Positions 1,672 through 11,160 of a stretch of DNA of 64,000 bases are shown here, one piece after another (the first letter of the stretch is position 1; every line of letters starts with the position of its first letter). This DNA comes from Dictyostelium discoideum (taxonomy: Eukaryota), in contig CM000153.2 of assembly GCA_000004695.1 (NCBI GenBank), forward strand, positions 2,560,001 to 2,624,000, read 5' to 3'. The notes below the pieces were generated by a model. The model ran no database searches. It was not told where the DNA came from and saw nothing but the letters and a program-made list of their open reading frames with translations. Both the position numbers and the translations under genes were made by a program.

Positions 1672-2637
1672 TTAAGGATTTTTAATTTTTGAGTTATGGT
1701 TGGATGACAGCTCCCTTGAATAATCGTTAAGTAGGAAGTCTATTTTCTTAAGCATTATGCTTGAGAGGGTTGAGGATTTTTTTAATCTCCATCTGCGCTT
1801 GTTCATCTGTATGTTGGGTAGAGTGAAGGTGGTTGATAGGAAGTTGTGATCTGATAGAGGTATGTCATTAATTTTTGGGGGGATTAGGTTCCTTAAGTAT
1901 AATTGGCTGTAGTTGATTATGCTATTGTTAAGGTATATTCTGTCTAGTCTCCTTTCCAAGATTCTTGTGAGGTTATTGTTTGTGTTGTGTATCGTTCTTG
2001 AGAAGGTGGGTCTTTTATTTAGTTGGTCCATATCCATTAGGTTATTTGAAATTCTGATGGCTTCAATTACTGTGGCCATCTCATCTGGGGATTGTGTTGT
2101 CAAGTTGCCTTGGTCGTCATTTGATGTGTGATTGTCATTGAAGTCTAAACAATTGAAGTCACCTGCTATGATGTCGATGTTTTTATTAGGGTTAGACGTT
2201 AGGTTGTGGTATTGGTTGTTGAAGAGTTTGTTTAGTGTTGAAGCTAGTATTTTTCTTTTATCAGGTTGGGCCGGGGCGTATATGGCCAAGATTCTCGTTG
2301 TGGTATCTTTTATTAGAATGTCTGATATTATTAGTCTACCTTCTATTATGAATATTGGTGAGAGTTTTATGTTTTGGTTGTTGTGGTTTAGTATTCCTAT
2401 TCCGTTGCCTCTGTTGGTTGCGCTAATGATGAAGCCAGGAAATAGCTGGTGTGCTTGTGTTGCGTCAGCATTGAGTTCATTGACTATGGTTAGTGCCAAT
2501 GAGTTTGGGGGGNNNNNNNNNNNNNNNNNNNNNNNNNNNNNNNNNNNNNNNNNNNNNNNNNNNNNNNNNNNNNNNNNNNNNNNNNNNNNNNNNNNNNNNN
2601 NNNNNNNNNNNNTTTTTAAACGCGGCTTTAAATTCAA
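1672..2637 (-). CDS. Retrotransposon ORF2 fragment: apurinic/apyrimidinic-like endonuclease (EEP) domain, interrupted by an N-gap
   Basis: ORF-table 321-aa ORF with the motifs IIAGDFNCLDFND and LSDHNFL typical of L1-type APE domains. A run of X residues corresponds to the 100-N gap. Confidence 0.7.
   Translation of the reverse strand: MNLKPRLKXXXXXXXXXXXXXXXXXXXXXXXXXXXXXXXXXXPPNSLALTIVNELNADATQAHQLFPGFIISATNRGNGIGILNHNNQNIKLSPIFIIEGRLIISDILIKDTTTRILAIYAPAQPDKRKILASTLNKLFNNQYHNLTSNPNKNIDIIAGDFNCLDFNDNHTSNDDQGNLTTQSPDEMATVIEAIRISNNLMDMDQLNKRPTFSRTIHNTNNNLTRILERRLDRIYLNNSIINYSQLYLRNLIPPKINDIPLSDHNFLSTTFTLPNIQMNKRRWRLKKSSTLSSIMLKKIDFLLNDYSRELSSNHNSKIKNP
2513..2612. other. Assembly gap (100 N) inside the retroelement
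   Basis: Literal run of n characters. Confidence 0.97.
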
Positions 2638-2665
2638 TTTAAATCCAATTTAAATCAACTTTTCT

Positions 2666-3088
2666 TTAAATTTGCTTTAAAGGTGCATTTTTCTTTGCTG
2701 TGGATTTAATTAGTTTACATCCTTCATTTTCTATTACCCATTCTATTTCTGTGAGTGATTTATACCAATCGAAATCCGTATACATATTTTTTGGTCTTAG
2801 AGTGGTTATAAATTGTCCTTTTAATTCTGCATCGAACATATTTACAAAATAGATTACTGTACTAATACTGTCTGTGAGAATTTTGAATGTATTATTACTT
2901 TTGATTAAAACATCTTTTTTGTCCAAACTTTTTTCTAAATCTTTTTTTATTTTATCGTCTGGTTCGTGATTGATGTTTATGACGTATTTGAATTGTTTTT
3001 TTTTTAATTGAGTTTTATCCACAATTTCGCTTATTTTTTGTAGGCATTTGTGTTGCTTAATATTTGTGGTGTTGTTTGTGATTTTCAT
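2666..3088 (-). CDS. Retrotransposon ORF1-like protein (140 aa)
   Basis: The ORF lies immediately 5' of the APE-containing ORF2 on the same strand. It is basic and Lys-rich, and its position matches the ORF1 of TRE5 elements. No independent homology was recognised. Confidence 0.45.
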   Translation of the reverse strand: MKITNNTTNIKQHKCLQKISEIVDKTQLKKKQFKYVININHEPDDKIKKDLEKSLDKKDVLIKSNNTFKILTDSISTVIYFVNMFDAELKGQFITTLRPKNMYTDFDWYKSLTEIEWVIENEGCKLIKSTAKKNAPLKQI

Positions 3089-3163
3089 TTTATTTTCTTT
3101 CTATTTTTTATATTTTTCTTTAAAAAGTTAAAAATCTGGAAATTTTCTGATTAACTTGGTTCC

Positions 3164-3165
<2 letters not shown>

Positions 3166-3210
<45 letters not shown>
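3166..3210. repeat. 45-nt poly(T) homopolymer (poly(A) on the element strand) between ORF1 and the A-module repeats
   Basis: Uninterrupted t-run. Confidence 0.95.
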
Positions 3211-3214
<4 letters not shown>

Positions 3215-3482
3215 TCTTTTTTATATGAAAAATGAAATAATCAAAAAAAGAGATTGTTGTTGTTGTTTGTTTTTTTTCGATCTGATTATTTTTTGCTTTT
3301 TTTTGAAAATTTTGCTACGCAAAATTCTCAAAACGAAACAAATAATAAATTACAATAAAGTAAAAAGATGGCTTTTTAAGATAGTTTATTTATTTATTTA
3401 TTTGTTTTTTAAGTCTTTTTTATATGAAAAATGAAATAATCAAAAAAAGAGATTGTTGTTGTTGTTTGTTTTTTTTCGATCT
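3211..3482 (-). repeat. Direct duplication of a ~72-bp A-module-like segment (copies 3211-3282 and 3411-3482; 200-bp period)
   Basis: A near-identical string, taagtcttttttatatgaaaaatgaaataatcaaaaaaagagattgttgttgttgtttgttttttttcgatct, occurs twice exactly 200 bp apart. Confidence 0.75.
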
Positions 3483-3536
3483 CAAAATTTATCCCAAGGA
3501 ATTGAAATACGGCGATCATTACAAGAATCCCATAAA

Positions 3537-3610
3537 GCCTTAGTAGCTCAGTTGGTACGAGCGTGAGACTGAAGATCTTAAGGTCGCTGGTTCGATCCCG
3601 GCCTGAGGCA
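3537..3610 (+). tRNA. tRNA-Phe (anticodon GAA)
   Basis: The cloverleaf folds cleanly. The acceptor stem GCCTTAG pairs with CTGAGGC, the D-arm is GCTC/GAGC, the anticodon stem is TGAGA/TCTTA with loop CTGAAGA (anticodon GAA), the T-arm is GCTGG-TTCGATC-CCGGC (B box GGTTCGATCC), and the discriminator is A. The A box is TAGCTCAGTTGG. Confidence 0.93.
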
Positions 3611-3638: not shown

Positions 3639-3656
3639 GCAAGTTCGATTCTCGGT
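3639..3656 (+). promoter_or_regulatory. External B-box-like element (caagttcgattctcgg) ~30 bp downstream of tRNA-Phe
   Basis: GTTCGATTC matches the B-box consensus GGTTCGAnTCC. Dictyostelium tRNA genes are known to carry an extra downstream B box. A T-run terminator follows at 3662-3670. Confidence 0.45.
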
Positions 3657-3659
3657 CAC

Positions 3660-4317
3660 TTTTTTTTTAAAATGAAAACTGGTCAATATTATAAAAAACA
3701 ACTAAATCATACTCAATCACCAAACCGTGTGAGATACAACACAGCAATACCCAAAGTATTCAAAACATCAACAGCATTTCTCACCAAAAAGGTAGAAACA
3801 CCCTCTTCAGATTCTTCTCAAGATCACTTCCAGGTATCAACCACGAAAGAGACACCAGATGCAAGATCTGTGGCCACCTATTCAGAGACCCTTATTCTCA
3901 CCTCTTCACTCTATGCCAAGATATCCTTGATATTGAAAAAACCATCATATCAACAGTTAAAAAATTATCATTCATCAAAATCCACAGATGGTCAATGGAT
4001 ACCTTAGACATATCAAAATACAACAGAACTGAGAGAATCTTCCCCAATCTCATAGGAATAATAGCACACCAATTATGGAAGATAATCTGTCACAAATTGT
4101 TCAACACTGATGAAAGCAAACCAGAGCCAAAATTCGAACAAAAGGTCATAGAAACAGAATTACTAAATCTCATCGAAACTGAAAAATTCATCACACTAAA
4201 GAAAATCAAACACGACGAAGCAATACTAAAAAACACCAATCAAGATCTTCACAAATACAAATTCAACAAAGCCTGGCAAACCCCAGCAGCTCCGAACCCT
4301 CTTCCAATTTAAGTAGT

Positions 4318-4398
<81 letters not shown>
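3660..4398 (+). mobile_element. 5'-truncated non-LTR retroelement 3' fragment (TRE3-like), ending in a ~78-nt poly(A)
   Basis: The segment is GC-richer and carries two overlapping out-of-frame ORFs (3672-4007 and 3995-4312). It ends in a long pure poly(A) at 4321-4398. Its start ~50 bp downstream of the tRNA gene is consistent with the TRE3 class of downstream integrators. Confidence 0.5.
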
Positions 4399-4408
<10 letters not shown>

Positions 4409-4560
4409 GTTTAAAAAAATTAATACAATTGAATAATAAAAATAAAACCGTTTAACAAACACCGCCGAAAAGACAAAAGGACATTCCTTGAAGGTCTGAT
4501 CACAGGTAAAAAAAAAAAAAAAAAAACAATCACCAAACCGTGATAACAAAAAAAAAGGCC
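4399..4560 (+). mobile_element. Short retroelement 3'-end fragments: GC-rich caccgccgaaaagacaaaaggacattccttgaaggtctgatcacaggt followed by A18, then a 16-mer that recurs at the start of the upstream fragment
   Basis: A poly(A) run sits at 4510-4527. The string caatcaccaaaccgtg at 4528-4543 is identical to 3714-3729. Confidence 0.3.
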
Positions 4561-4639
4561 AAATAAAAGAAAAAAAAATCATTGATCAAATTAAAAAAAA
4601 GATTGGAATAAATTTTATTTTAATAATTTAAGCCATTTA

Positions 4640-4985
4640 ATAGTTGGTATTATAGAAATAATTTAAATGATAATGAAAACAATTTAAAACACCTTTAAAT
4701 GTGTATTTGGACATCAATACCAAGGATAAAGATTAATTAAATGAGAATCTGTATTTGTTTGAACCTTGTTACCACTTTGTTGTGTTTGATTAGACATTTG
4801 ATTTAATGATTTGAAACTTCTTTTGCTTGATTTAACATTACCTAAAGATGAAATTGATTCTTTTACATAATGTTTTGTAAAATTAAATTTTTTTTTTTTT
4901 TTTTTTTTTGTTAGTTTTTTTTTTTTTTTTAAAATTCAAAAAAAAAAACTTTTAAAATTTTATTCTTATTGTATAACATTTTGAA
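4640..4985 (-). pseudogene. hssA-like array copy 1, decayed
   Basis: The donor is mutated (ATGTTATACAATAAGA instead of ...AGTAAGT), and a deletion before the C-terminus shifts the frame (…DSHLINLYPWY*). Confidence 0.4.
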
Positions 4986-5557
4986 ATATAAAAGAAATTA
5001 AATTGATATTGAATTTGTATTTGAAATGGAGTAGTTTAGAATTTTTTTAATTTCATATTTATACTTTTTTTTTTCAATTTTTTTTTTTCTCCTTATGTAT
5101 TTTAAATTACTATATTAGATATTCAAATTGAATATAAATCAATAATTTTAAAAAATCGCCTTTAAATAATTTTATTTTTTCAAAAAATCTTCTCCTAAAT
5201 ATTTTTTATTTTTAAAATCTAAAAAAAAAAAGCAGATCCTTGGATTTGTAATCATCTCTATTGGGAAAACAAAACTAATCCCTATATAAGATTGGATAAA
5301 AGAAAAAAAATTTAGTTTAAGATGTAGAACTCACAAATAATTGATTGAAAATAAAAAAAAAAAAAAAAAAAAAAATTTCTATCATGTTTGGTCATATTGG
5401 AAAAAAAGCTAAATCTTTGGCCAAATAAAAAAGAAAAATCTTTGATCAAAAAAAAAGAAATTAAATTTTTTTAAATTTATTTTATAAAAAAATATTGGAT
5501 AAAATTTTATTTAATCAATTAAGACTTTTAGTGTTTTGTATGATACAAAAAACACCT

Positions 5558-5841
5558 TTAAATTTGTAATTGGACATCAATACCAAGGATATTTGCAGAA
5601 AGATCTATTAAATGAGGATTTGTATTAGTTTGAACATTGTTACCACTGTGTTGTGTTTGATTGGATAATTGATTTACTGATTTGAAATTGTTTTGGCTTG
5701 ATTTAACATTACCTAAAGATGAAATTGATTCTTTAAAAATGTTGTTATGTAAAAAAAAAAAGTTTTTTTTTTTTTTTTAATTTTTTTTTTTTAATTATTA
5801 TTTAATTCAAATTTTAAAATTTTAAACTTACTGTATAACAT
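5558..5841 (-). CDS. hssA-like small protein, array copy 2 (apparently intact; same exon-intron structure; coordinates approximate)
   Basis: ATGTTATACA with a GTAAGT donor at ~5832-5841 (minus). Exon 2 encodes KSISSLGNVKSSQNNFKSVNQLSNQTQHSGNNVQTNTNPHLIDLSANILGIDVQLQI with TAA at ~5558. It differs from copy 3 by several substitutions but preserves frame. Confidence 0.45.
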
Positions 5842-6568
5842 TTTGAAAAATTAATGGAAAAGTTGGAATTATTGTAAATGTTTTAATTTGAATTGAAGTG
5901 GTTTACAATTATTTTTCATTTCCTATTTATACTCTTTTTTTTTTTTTTTTTCATATTTTTTTTTTTCTCAAAACATTAGTATAATATTATATGCAAATAC
6001 TAAATACTAAATAAATAACATAGATATTCTATTATCAAATCGTTAATTTTTTGTTGATTTTTATTTTAAAAAATCGCCTTAATTTTACAGATTTAAAAAA
6101 TCTAACATAAAAAAAGGCATATATTTGGATTTGTATTCAACTCTTAAGTGATAAAAATTCGGGATTTCGCGCCATGACAAGTTATTTTAATAAATGATAT
6201 ACTCCGCAACAAAGATTACGTAAACAAAAATAAAAAAAATCCATATTTTACACAAGCGTAAAAAAAAAAAAATTACAATTCAATTAGGAATTAATTTTTT
6301 TTTTATAAAAAAACCAACTGCCATCTTCAAAACTTTTAAAACCCAAAAACACTGGGTGATATTTGAAAAAAAAAAAAAAAAAAAAAAAATTGTTCTTTTT
6401 AGCAATAAAAGGAAAAAAAAAAATTGTTCTTTTTAGCAATAAAAGTAAAAAAAAAAATTCTATTTATAAAAAAAATTATTATTGTATAAAAATTTTATTT
6501 AATCATTTAAACCATTTAATGGCAGATACTATATAGAAAAATTTCAAATGATACCATTAAAATCACCT

Positions 6569-6856
6569 TTAAATGTGTAATTGGACATCAATACCAAGGA
6601 TATTTAGAGAAAGATCAATTAAATTAGAATCTGTATTTATTTGAACATTGTTTCCACTTTGTTGTGTTTGATTGGATAGTTGATTTACTGATTTGAAGTT
6701 GTTTTGGCTTGATTTAACATTACCTAAAGATGAAATTGATTCTTTAAAAATATGTTTTTGTAAAAAATATTTTTTTTTTTTTTTTTTTGTTAGTTGTTTT
6801 TTTTTTTTTTTATTATTTAAATCAACTTTTAAAATTTTAAACTTACTGTATAACAT
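6569..6856 (-). CDS. hssA/2C/7E-like small protein, array copy 3 (exon 1 6847-6856, intron 6742-6846, exon 2 6569-6741; ~61 aa: MLYKSISSLGNVKSSQNNFKSVNQLSNQTQQSGNNVQINTDSNLIDLSLNILGIDVQLHI)
   Basis: The sequence reads ATGTTATACA followed by a GTAAGT donor and a 105-nt AT-rich intron ending ...tttttaaag, then the in-frame exon. The SISSLGNVKS motif resembles the N-terminus of hssA/B-like/sigN family proteins, which are also short and have a single 5' intron. The ORF table shows the unspliced read-through (95 aa). Confidence 0.5.
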   Translation of the reverse strand: MLYSKFKILKVDLNNKKKKKQLTKKKKKKYFLQKHIFKESISSLGNVKSSQNNFKSVNQLSNQTQQSGNNVQINTDSNLIDLSLNILGIDVQLHI

Positions 6857-7429
6857 TTTGAAAAATTAATGAAAAAATTAAATTGATACTTGTTTTAATT
6901 TGTATTTGAATTGAAGTGGTTTAAAATTATTTTTCATTTCCTATTTATACTCTTTTTTTTTTTTTTAAATTTTTTTTTTTTTTTTTTACTTATATTAGCA
7001 TAAAATAATATCCAAATACCAAATACTGGTAATTAAAACAATTTAGATATTCTATTATAAAATCGAAAATGTTTTGCTTATTTTTTTTTAAAATAATCGC
7101 CTTTAAATAGTTATAATTTTACAGAATTTTTTTACTAAGAAATGGTATAAGATTAAAAAAAAAATTCTAGATCCAGCAAATTATTGATTTTTAAAAAAAA
7201 AAAAAAAAAAAATTTTGATAAATTTTAAAAATAAATACATTAAAATTTAAGCCTTTAAGGTGAAAAGTAATTTATGCTGCGCAAGTGGGTTGTTGTAATA
7301 AAAAAAAATCTTTATTGTTCAAGAGCTAAATCCACTAACAAATAATAAAATAATCTAAAAAAAAAAAAAAAAATCTAAAATAAAAAAATAAATAAAAAAA
7401 AAAAATTCGATGAAATTTTATTTCATTTT

Positions 7430-7620
7430 ATCATTTAAGATATTTAATGTTTTATATTATAGAAATGATTTTAATGATACCATTTAGAGCACCTTTAAAC
7501 TCGTAATCCAATACCAACACCAAGGATATTTGCAGAAAGAAAAATTAAATCTGTTATTTTTTTAATTTGTATTTGAATTGCAGTGGTTAACAATTTTTTA
7601 TTTCCTATTTATATTCTTTT
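7430..7620 (-). pseudogene. hssA-like array copy 4, internally deleted remnant
   Basis: The unit retains the 3' flank and the 5' flank (gtatttgaattgcagtggtt...) but lacks most of the coding region. Confidence 0.35.
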
Positions 7621-8201
7621 TATTTTTTTTCTCCCTATATGTTAGTATAAAATAAAATAGCAAATACCTAATTAATATATTTTACTTAGATATTAACAAA
7701 TCGAGAATTTTATGTCAGATTTTTTTTTTTTTAAAAAAAAAAAAACGCCTTTAAATAAACCACTTGCACCACCTTTTTTTAAATTAATTATTATCAATAA
7801 TCTACAAAAATAAAATAGATAATTAATTAAACAATATTAATAATTAATAAATAATTATTAATATTATTTATGATAAAATACATTTCTTTCAACAAATCCC
7901 AATATCATATGTAATAATAAAAAAAAAAAAAAAAATCTTACTTAAGAACTGATATGCAATACTAAGAATTCAGAAGTCAAATAATAACCAATAACAATAA
8001 TTACCTTAAGATTTGCCAAAACTTCAAATTACTTTCCACAGAAAGTTTACATGTTTTTAAAAAATAAATAAATTTATTACACCCATTTAACTTTTCCTTC
8101 AAAATAAAAATGAGATGACTGAATAAATTTATCATTATATTTTATTTCAATTAATTATCTTATCTTATTTTATTCTATTTTATTTTAGAGTTTTTTTAAA
8201 A

Positions 8202-11160
<2,959 letters not shown>

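Follow-up and report, generated by a model that had tools for sequence, protein, structure and literature searches.

A 64,000-nucleotide (nt) stretch of Dictyostelium discoideum chromosome 4 (contig CM000153.2 of assembly GCA_000004695.1, positions 2,560,001 to 2,624,000 of the forward strand; hereafter the window, in whose numbering positions are given unless a retrieved locus is named) carries a tandem array of four small units on its minus strand. Two of them, copies 2 and 3 (c2 and c3), are, with a probability that we put at roughly 0.8, real coding genes of a divergent, C-terminally shortened branch of the sigN/hssA/2C/7E family. The reference annotation of the locus is in clear error: it fuses the intact c2 to the pseudogene c1 and misses c3, the best-preserved copy. 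Similarity within the array is more than chance, because exon 2 is indel-free at 92.5% identity between c2 and c3 set against diverged non-coding parts, and because the peptide is conserved in a second species. The link to the hssA/2C/7E genes is drawn from a shared intron position and phase, a shared SISS(L/I)GNVKSS start and borderline scores on the Pfam family PF05710.

Self-BLASTN, a repeat finder and unit alignment agree on four head-to-tail units spanning 3.2 kb (Table 1), flanked on one side by the truncated tail of a TRE3-like retroelement (poly(A) at 4321-4399) and on the other by the 3' end of an upstream gene of 985 amino acids (aa) at about 8240. The units match one another at 81% identity (5473-6080 versus 6455-7103), 80% (4562-5088 versus 6438-6980) and 72% (4557-5259 versus 5419-6144), unit 4 doing so as two fragments (7540-7757 and 7420-7550), and BLASTN self-comparison found no further copies elsewhere in the 64-kb window. 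Within each complete cassette the order is upstream elements, TATA box, a 5' untranslated region (UTR) of about 85 nt, a 10-nt exon 1, a phase-1 intron, a 173-nt exon 2 and a 3'UTR that carries an ATCATTTGAA motif and AATAAA. In the intact copies exon 1 reads ATGTTATACA and is followed by the donor GTAAGT. The introns, counting the remnant in c1, are 101-110 nt long, A/T-rich and end in AAAG, with CTAAC present in c1 and c3, and the c2 and c3 peptides are 60 aa long, Cys-free and rich in Ser, Asn and Gln. The other two units are decayed. Copy 1 has a mutated donor and an 8-nt deletion near the 3' end of exon 2, which shifts the frame to ...HLINLYPWY and a premature stop at 4714-4716; in copy 4 a stretch of about 330 nt, reaching from the 5'UTR to codon ~41, is gone and with it the ATG, exon 1 and the intron, so that the 5'UTR now runs straight into the last 14 codons. 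An initial annotation, made from the letters of the DNA, had proposed a tandem array of ~950-bp units carrying a two-exon gene for a ~61-aa peptide, intact in two copies and decayed in the other two. Self-BLASTN bears out the array, and gene coordinates and unit alignment bear out the division into intact and decayed copies, including the loss of the c1 donor, the c1 frameshift and the internal deletion of c4. The two exons also stand, but the product is one residue shorter, the c2 intron covers 5731-5831 rather than 5727-5831, and the fixed period gives way to ATG-to-ATG distances of 862 nt (c1 to c2) and 1015 nt (c2 to c3), set by spacers of variable length around a conserved core of ~650-700 nt.

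Because the copies retain introns and promoters, they are not retrocopies. We also considered whether the unit is a mobile element and rejected the idea, transposon features being absent and other copies absent from the window. The complete ~0.9-kb cassette was instead amplified at the DNA level, by segmental duplication or unequal crossing-over, in an array that now evolves by birth and death, with c2 and c3 as its functional members and c1 and c4 as its decayed ones; this origin by tandem duplication and birth-and-death decay is well supported.

The reference gene at the locus is DDB_G0284877 (Q54P19, XP_639898.1), and a newer model, KAM9942729.1, comes from a second D. discoideum assembly. 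The protein sequences of both could be rebuilt exactly from window coordinates. In both, c2 exon 2 minus its last eight codons is joined to the exon of pseudogene c1, and the product ends in the frameshifted ...LYPWY of c1. If these models were right, the locus would hold one three-exon gene of 100-104 aa with two tandem SISSLGNVKSS domains. Two database entries do show this structure, but the second is not independent evidence, because its assembly's array has no nucleotide mismatch to the window (99.8% identity, three gap openings). The GT..AG boundaries that the models need are present at 5583 and 4860; the donor there, however, is a weak GTATTG, and the intron would be 724 nt long against 38-147 nt in the family (PMC2257962). 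The two-domain product does score higher on PF05710, at 25.9-28.2 bits, but this simply sums two N-terminal matches. Moreover, the eight codons that are dropped (GIDVQLQI and stop) are conserved, with the same stop, in c3 and in both of the D. firmibasis genes described below, whereas the copy that supplies the third exon is frameshifted, lacks a working donor and gives an unconserved end. The AX4 version, in addition, takes as its start an ATG that lies upstream of the TATA box of c2, and it uses that TATA box, GTATAAAT, as a splice donor. The published list of 96 family genes has no entry with three exons, 104 aa and a chromosome 4 location (PMC2257962). We therefore consider the annotated three-exon gene highly improbable. 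The exact 60-aa products of c2 and c3 are not in a collection of 15 billion proteins, and the second assembly has no gene call over c3. The mis-annotation has already passed into the annotation of the newer assembly, and expression, proteomic or knockout studies keyed to the DDB_G0284877 model will misread the locus. A locus from assembly GCA_054883475.1 aligns to window positions 15885-2613 at 99.1% identity.

Relatives were sought in two protein libraries, one of 5.8 billion proteins queried by word index, the other of 1.84 billion representatives scanned exhaustively with a HMMER profile. The two libraries gave only three real clusters, namely the chimeric D. discoideum models and two D. 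firmibasis genes, RB653_001377 (58 aa, CM069766.1:3851068-3851341) and RB653_007237 (57 aa, CM069769.1, within 1977485-1997748), both labelled "hypothetical protein"; two bacterial repeat proteins from the profile search (P0004, P0005) were dismissed as low-complexity noise. The D. firmibasis genes, which answer the initial annotation's call to look for related peptides in other dictyostelids, are 61-65% identical in amino acids to the D. discoideum copies and share with them the 10-nt exon 1, the phase-1 intron, the position of the stop, the conserved TATA, 5'UTR and 3'UTR blocks and the C-terminal pattern. With exon borders marked ^, both read ATGTTAT(A/T)CA^GTAAGA, an intron of ~90-100 nt, and AG^AATC(A/T)ATTTCATC. 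Their models were made by MAKER from Trinity transcripts and the D. discoideum proteome (PMC11193728). Neither the MLY exon nor the last eight residues are present in Q54P19, the sole relative that this proteome contains, and we infer from this that the models most likely rest on spliced transcripts, which would be indirect support for expression.

Comparison of the copies with each other and with these relatives points to selection on the protein. Between c2 and c3, exon 2 has no indels, whereas identity falls to 73-84%, with many indels, in the intron, the 5' region and the 3' flank. The coding sequences differ at 13 nt in 11 codons, giving seven amino-acid changes, none of them in the first 30 residues; the initial annotation had rightly seen the frame kept but had counted only about eight substitutions. 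Against RB653_001377, the ratio of non-synonymous to synonymous substitution rates (dN/dS) is 0.36 for c2 (p = 0.011) and 0.29 for c3 (p = 0.002), and the coding sequence lies z = 9.7 above shuffled controls, with 150-nt flanks no closer than shuffled sequence. Drawing on two species, D. discoideum and D. firmibasis, the test shows that c2 and c3 are under protein-level purifying selection, with significance reached across species only.

Unlike the array, the D. firmibasis genes are single and dispersed, and their neighbouring genes are absent from the window; TBLASTX of both loci against the 64-kb window matched the peptide gene and nothing else. The two paralogous loci share ~930 bp, the size of the D. 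discoideum repeat unit. RB653_007237 lies in a 1.6-kb interval between S8 peptidase and mitochondrial-carrier genes (8844-10469 of the retrieved locus). With the S8 peptidase gene as anchor, the syntenic intervals of D. discoideum (9653-10001 of its retrieved locus) and D. citrinum (9704-10001) measure ~300-350 nt and hold no copy. Sister species thus differ in the presence of a gene at this site.

Several lines of evidence place the array genes next to the sigN/hssA-like family, of which 96 genes have been listed, 89 of them with a 13-nt exon-1 open reading frame (ORF) and three with a 10-nt one; one short intron and a second exon with the remaining ORF follow (PMC2257962). The family counts about 96-100 genes in D. 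discoideum (Vicente et al. 2008, PMC2257962; Kin et al. 2018, PMC6198379). The genes often lie in local tandem clusters of near-identical paralogues, partly made up of divergent gene pairs, and the proteins are rich in Ser, Cys and Gly, with four cysteines in a proposed cysteine-knot-like arrangement and a predicted hydrophobic or transmembrane stretch (PMC2257962). PF05710 (HssA/B-related, "Coiled") was the only Pfam family matched. The intron comparison took in two canonical genes from one species, D. dimigraforme. In these, exon 1 is 13 nt long, and a phase-1 intron splits the codon that immediately precedes SISSIGN. Position and phase match: the window reads ATGTTATACA^GT...AG^AA TCA ATT TCA TCT TTA GGT AAT, one canonical gene ATGACAATCATGG^GT...AG^CT TCA ATC TCT TCA ATT GGA AAT, and its partner ...AG^CC TCA ATT TCA TCA ATA GGT AAT. 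By our count, c3 and one canonical gene agree at 26 of the first 30 exon-2 nucleotides that follow the split codon. At the protein level, the N-terminus MLYKSISSLGNVKSS compares with canonical MTIMASISSIGNVKSS (family consensus M-T-I-L-x-SISSIGN-x-KS), 10 of 11 residues being identical between SISSLGNVKSS and SISSIGNVKSS; in a BLASTP comparison with a canonical member, residues 2-41 are 40% identical (pairwise E = 2e-5), and canonical members can be aligned collinearly up to about their residue 55, N-x-x-Q and L-x-N...N-[IL]-[LV]-G included.

The array genes thus resemble the family in their tiny exon 1, a ~100-nt phase-1 intron before SISS(I/L)GN, a common N-terminal module, a Ser-rich linker ending in N-x-(V/I)-Q, small size, tandem clustering with pseudogenes and restriction to dictyostelids. 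They differ in an exon 1 of 10 rather than mostly 13 nt, in a product of 60 aa where 85-98 is typical, and in the C-terminal half, where an amphipathic tail, L-x-L-S-x-N-I-L-G-I-D-x-Q-L-x-I, stands in place of the cysteines and the Gly/Val-rich hydrophobic segment. Array peptides have no Cys and two or three Gly against four and 14 in a canonical member, and their maximum 9-residue Kyte-Doolittle hydropathy is 1.5-1.8 against 3.2. The initial annotation's two proposals, a resemblance to the hssA/2C/7E (sigN) proteins and a C-terminal half that is not Gly/Cys-rich, are therefore both upheld. With a fitting architecture and N-terminal module, a borderline profile score and no Cys/Gly domain, the array genes are best classed as a divergent truncated variant of the sigN/hssA/2C/7E family, not as canonical members. 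Three accepted members also have a 10-nt exon 1: sigN176 (DDB0185480, chromosome 4, 10 + 178 nt, 62 aa), sigN183 (chromosome 3, 10 + 160 nt, 56 aa) and sigN132 (chromosome 2, 10 + 220 nt, 76 aa) (PMC2257962). Compared by description only, they share that exon, an intron of 85-102 nt and, in two of three cases, a similar product size; the subfamily profile picked up none of the three at E <= 1e-3, and we accordingly do not count them as close relatives. The D. dimigraforme genes used above form a divergent pair at 5455-5780 (minus) and 6397-6727 (plus) of the retrieved locus. The annotated model of one, P0007, has a spurious 23-residue N-terminus, apparently since its exon 1 reads ATGACAATTTTTAG (14 nt, with one extra T), and the partner, unannotated, seems to have lost one nucleotide, reading TGTTGTAACC against TGTTGGTAACC in its neighbour.

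A number of results weigh against our interpretation. Between c2 and c3 alone, dN/dS is 0.40 (Nei-Gojobori; five synonymous and eight non-synonymous differences, p = 0.15), so that neutrality is not rejected and the constraint proposed in the initial annotation stands across species but not within the array. DDB_G0284877, under its gene, UniProt or RefSeq identifiers, did not turn up in searchable literature text or in the transcriptome and proteome supplements searched, which gave no D. discoideum expression or splice-junction evidence. Against the PF05710 cut-off of 21.4 bits, RB653_001377 scores 22.0 and the c1 product 21.7, with c3 (19.8), RB653_007237 (17.2) and c2 (16.9) falling below; three of five sequences thus miss the gathering score, and only profile positions 3-37 of 90 are matched. 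No canonical hssA protein was recovered by the subfamily profile at E <= 1e-3, although the search was exhaustive. AlphaFold2 run on the subfamily alignment gave a mean predicted local distance difference test (pLDDT) score of 51.6 and no secondary structure, the monomer being predicted disordered. Lastly, a frame-shifted hssA construct has been reported to retain activity (PMC6198379), so that protein-level function is not to be assumed family-wide.

The first two of these results would suit a picture in which the whole D. discoideum array is a decaying relic, c2 and c3 being open through recent duplication and function residing only in the D. firmibasis genes. Two of the four copies are indeed clearly dead, and members have been gained or lost between close species, as the empty RB653_007237 sites of D. 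discoideum and D. citrinum attest. Yet the non-coding parts of c2 and c3 are already 16-27% diverged with many indels while their exons have acquired neither indel nor stop, both copies retain GTAAGT/AG signals, TATA boxes and AATAAA, their first 30 residues are free of amino-acid change, and each has a dN/dS of ~0.3 against D. firmibasis. We regard the relic explanation as unlikely.

The Pfam and profile results, together with the missing Gly/Cys-rich half, raise the question of whether the genes are hssA/2C/7E homologues at all, or members of a different, perhaps entirely new, family of short proteins that shares a low-complexity, Ser-rich start. Their sizes of 57-60 aa recall the prestalk proteins of 57-59 aa (DDB_G0283501 cluster, chromosome 4), which are reported to have no significant similarity to hssA (PMC3640940, PMC8327917). 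By description only, this dictyBase "57-aa protein family" is also clustered on chromosome 4, and its small proteins are developmentally regulated, as the array genes probably are; none of its members was reached at E <= 1e-3 in the exhaustive profile search. A Ser-rich start shared by coincidence, however, sits poorly with an intron identical in position and phase relative to the SISS motif, with the matches at 26 of 30 nucleotides and 10 of 11 residues, and with an alignment that stays collinear beyond the start. PF05710 is the only Pfam match, with one orthologue above the cut-off, and the three accepted members with a 10-nt exon 1 have products of 56-76 aa. An unrelated origin is accordingly quite improbable to our minds, somewhat more so than the relic, and we continue to favor a divergent branch of the sigN/hssA/2C/7E family.

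Conservation is not confined to the exons. Downstream of the TATA box, GTATAAATAG, each unit has a conserved 5'UTR block, GGAAATGAAAAATAATTnTAAACCACTTCAATTCAAAT, which is nearly identical at the D. firmibasis RB653_007237 locus. The upstream region of the unit contains the element AAAGGCGAT, in c3 about 245 nt 5' of the ATG, and the block GATAATAGA; a block GATAATAGAATATCTA (c2, 6024-6036) adjoins the AAAGGCGAT element, and both are candidate cis-regulatory sites. In the alignment both D. firmibasis loci hold related upstream sequences (AAGGGGATT and AAGGGATTT), and in a five-way alignment conservation across species, strongest with RB653_007237, extends to the TATA box, two upstream blocks, the 5'UTR block, the intronic CTAAC and the 3'UTR motif. 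An Rfam scan of the window matched a tRNA and no other non-coding RNA family. The 5'UTR DNA of c2 (5888-5896) and c3 (6906-6914) also contains TTGAATTGA, just past the TATA box and on the strand opposite to the genes; this is the sequence of the Dd-STATa binding site or repeat. The idea of STATa sites here we rejected: eight occurrences in the window against 4.4 expected are not a significant excess.

These blocks bear on a further alternative, that the units act mainly through RNA rather than peptide, as has been proposed for hssA, whose frame-shifted construct still suppressed a STATa-related culmination defect (PMC6198379). Conserved 5'UTR and 3'UTR blocks would agree with such a role, as would the presence of TTGAATTGA in c2 and c3, although that sequence is not enriched, and c1 and D. 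firmibasis have TTGAAATGA in its place. An RNA-level role is disfavored because substitutions are biased to synonymous sites across species (dN/dS 0.29-0.36, p <= 0.011); frame, start and stop are also conserved, and the hydrophobic/polar pattern of the tail is held by residues that are not identical. We judge this alternative very improbable, and less so only than the annotated three-exon gene.

What the peptide does can be approached through its tail. The four intact members (c2, c3 and the two D. firmibasis genes) share a 17-residue tail of pattern hhphphphh-G-hphphph despite residue changes, with the consensus L-x-[DN]-L-S-x-N-[IL]-L-G-[IL]-[DN]-x-[QE]-L-x-[IL]-COOH. The decayed c4 reads ...ILGVGIGLRV, and because this resembles the canonical ...VLVGVGII, the tail may have arisen from the first part of the canonical hydrophobic segment. 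In this branch a Gly/Val/Cys-rich hydrophobic C-terminal half has been replaced by a short tail, with the N-terminal module and the gene architecture kept. The peptides have neither a signal peptide nor a hydrophobic segment. By analogy with other family members, their expression would probably be induced during multicellular development, through the conserved ~250-470-nt promoter. The N-terminal module may carry the activity common to the family, and the alternation of residues suggests that the tail may form two short amphipathic beta-strands around the glycine, which could mediate self-association or partner binding. Structure prediction was uninformative, and the hairpin idea accordingly draws on the residue pattern by itself; as a mode of action we hold it to be doubtful.

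We know of no molecular function for the hssA/2C/7E/sigN family (~100 genes), some of whose members are among the most highly expressed transcripts of late development. One attractive if speculative possibility, for which we would claim about as little confidence as for the tail's mode of action, is that the genes represent an unrecognized Cys-free "short" clade of the hssA/2C/7E superfamily, so far seen in D. discoideum and D. firmibasis only, whose strictly conserved two-strand amphipathic tail module, in place of the hydrophobic Gly/Cys domain, would make the peptides self-assembling components (beta-hairpin or amyloid-like) or ligands in development, and whose ~0.9-kb promoter-plus-gene cassette would behave as a unit, gaining and losing copies at sites that are not syntenic in sister species. 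If so, comparing the two C-terminal types could reveal the role of the shared SISSxGNxKSS N-terminal module, since a natural branch that is free of the Gly/Cys domain and under purifying selection is a ready-made domain dissection. The significance is nevertheless modest: a lineage-restricted small-peptide family of known type, and an annotation error.

Table 1. Coordinates of the array, its genes and pseudogenes, their signals and the existing gene models (^ marks an exon border)
Feature	Position	Strand	Details
Whole array, c1-c4	4557..7800	minus	Self-BLASTN, repeat finder, unit alignment
Copy 3 (c3), intact, unannotated gene	6569..6856	minus	ATG 6856; product MLYKSISSLGNVKSSQNNFKSVNQLSNQTQQSGNNVQINTDSNLIDLSLNILGIDVQLHI (60 aa)
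c3 exon 1	6847-6856	minus	ATGTTATACA
c3 intron	6742-6846	minus	105 nt; GTAAGT..CTAAC (6789-6793)..AAAG
c3 exon 2	6569-6741	minus	Includes TAA stop
c3 3'UTR	6494..6552	minus	Conserved ATCATTTGAA motif 6543-6552; AATAAA 6494-6499
Copy 2 (c2), intact gene	5558..5841	minus	ATG 5841; product MLYKSISSLGNVKSSQNNFKSVNQLSNQTQHSGNNVQTNTNPHLIDLSANILGIDVQLQI (60 aa)
c2 exon 1	5832-5841	minus	
c2 intron	5731-5831	minus	101 nt
c2 exon 2	5558-5730	minus	
Copy 1 (c1), pseudogene	4714..4979	minus	ATG 4979 retained; donor mutated (ACA^ATAAGA); intron remnant 4860-4969
Copy 4 (c4), pseudogene	7495..7614	minus	TATA box 7605-7614 and part of 5'UTR fused to last 14 codons ..SANILGVGIGLRV and stop (7495-7497)
TATA box GTATAAATAG	c3 6941-6950; c2 5923-5932; c1 5055-5064; c4 7605-7614	minus	
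Upstream element AAAGGCGAT	c3 7096-7104; c2 6073-6080; c1 5155-5163; c4 7745-7752	minus	Candidate cis-regulatory
AATAAA, other units	c2 5506-5511; c1 4614-4619; c4 7417-7422	minus	
Chimeric AX4 model DDB_G0284877 (104 aa)	4714..5954	minus	Exons 5933-5954, 5584-5730, 4714-4859
Newer model KAM9942729.1 (100 aa)		minus	Exons 5832-5841, 5584-5730, 4714-4859

Some further features of the array and its surroundings may be recorded. The 105-nt intron of c3 is in frame and free of stops; if it were retained, a single ORF of 95 aa with a Lys-rich insert would result. Conservation does not extend to this property, since c2 has an intron of 101 nt. The spacer between c2 and c3 contains 2.4 copies of a 34-nt tandem repeat, AAAAAAAAAAATTGTTCTTTTTAGCAATAAAAGG, at 6379-6459 (97% matches), and just upstream of it, at ~6160-6225, an unusually G+C-containing stretch, cgggatttcgcgccatgacaag....

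At the opposite end of the array from c4, c1 ends about 160 nt past the retroelement poly(A). That retroelement is a 5'-truncated 3' end with ORFs at 3672-4312 and a pure 79-nt poly(A), probably a TRE3-type insertion. Beyond it lie a tRNA-Phe (GAA) gene at 3537-3610, with a second B-box-like sequence, GTTCGATTCTCGG, at ~3643-3655, and a TRE5-type retrotransposon upstream of the tRNA gene (1672-3490, minus strand), which has a 140-aa ORF at 2666-3088 and an endonuclease-like ORF at 1672-2637 and is interrupted by an assembly gap (N run, 2514-2612). A 106-nt segment is duplicated at 3186-3291 and 3385-3490 with 92% identity. At the left edge of the window, an ORF at 38-1216 encodes the C-terminal part of a P-type ATPase-like protein with the motifs MVTGDN and GDGANDCGALK.

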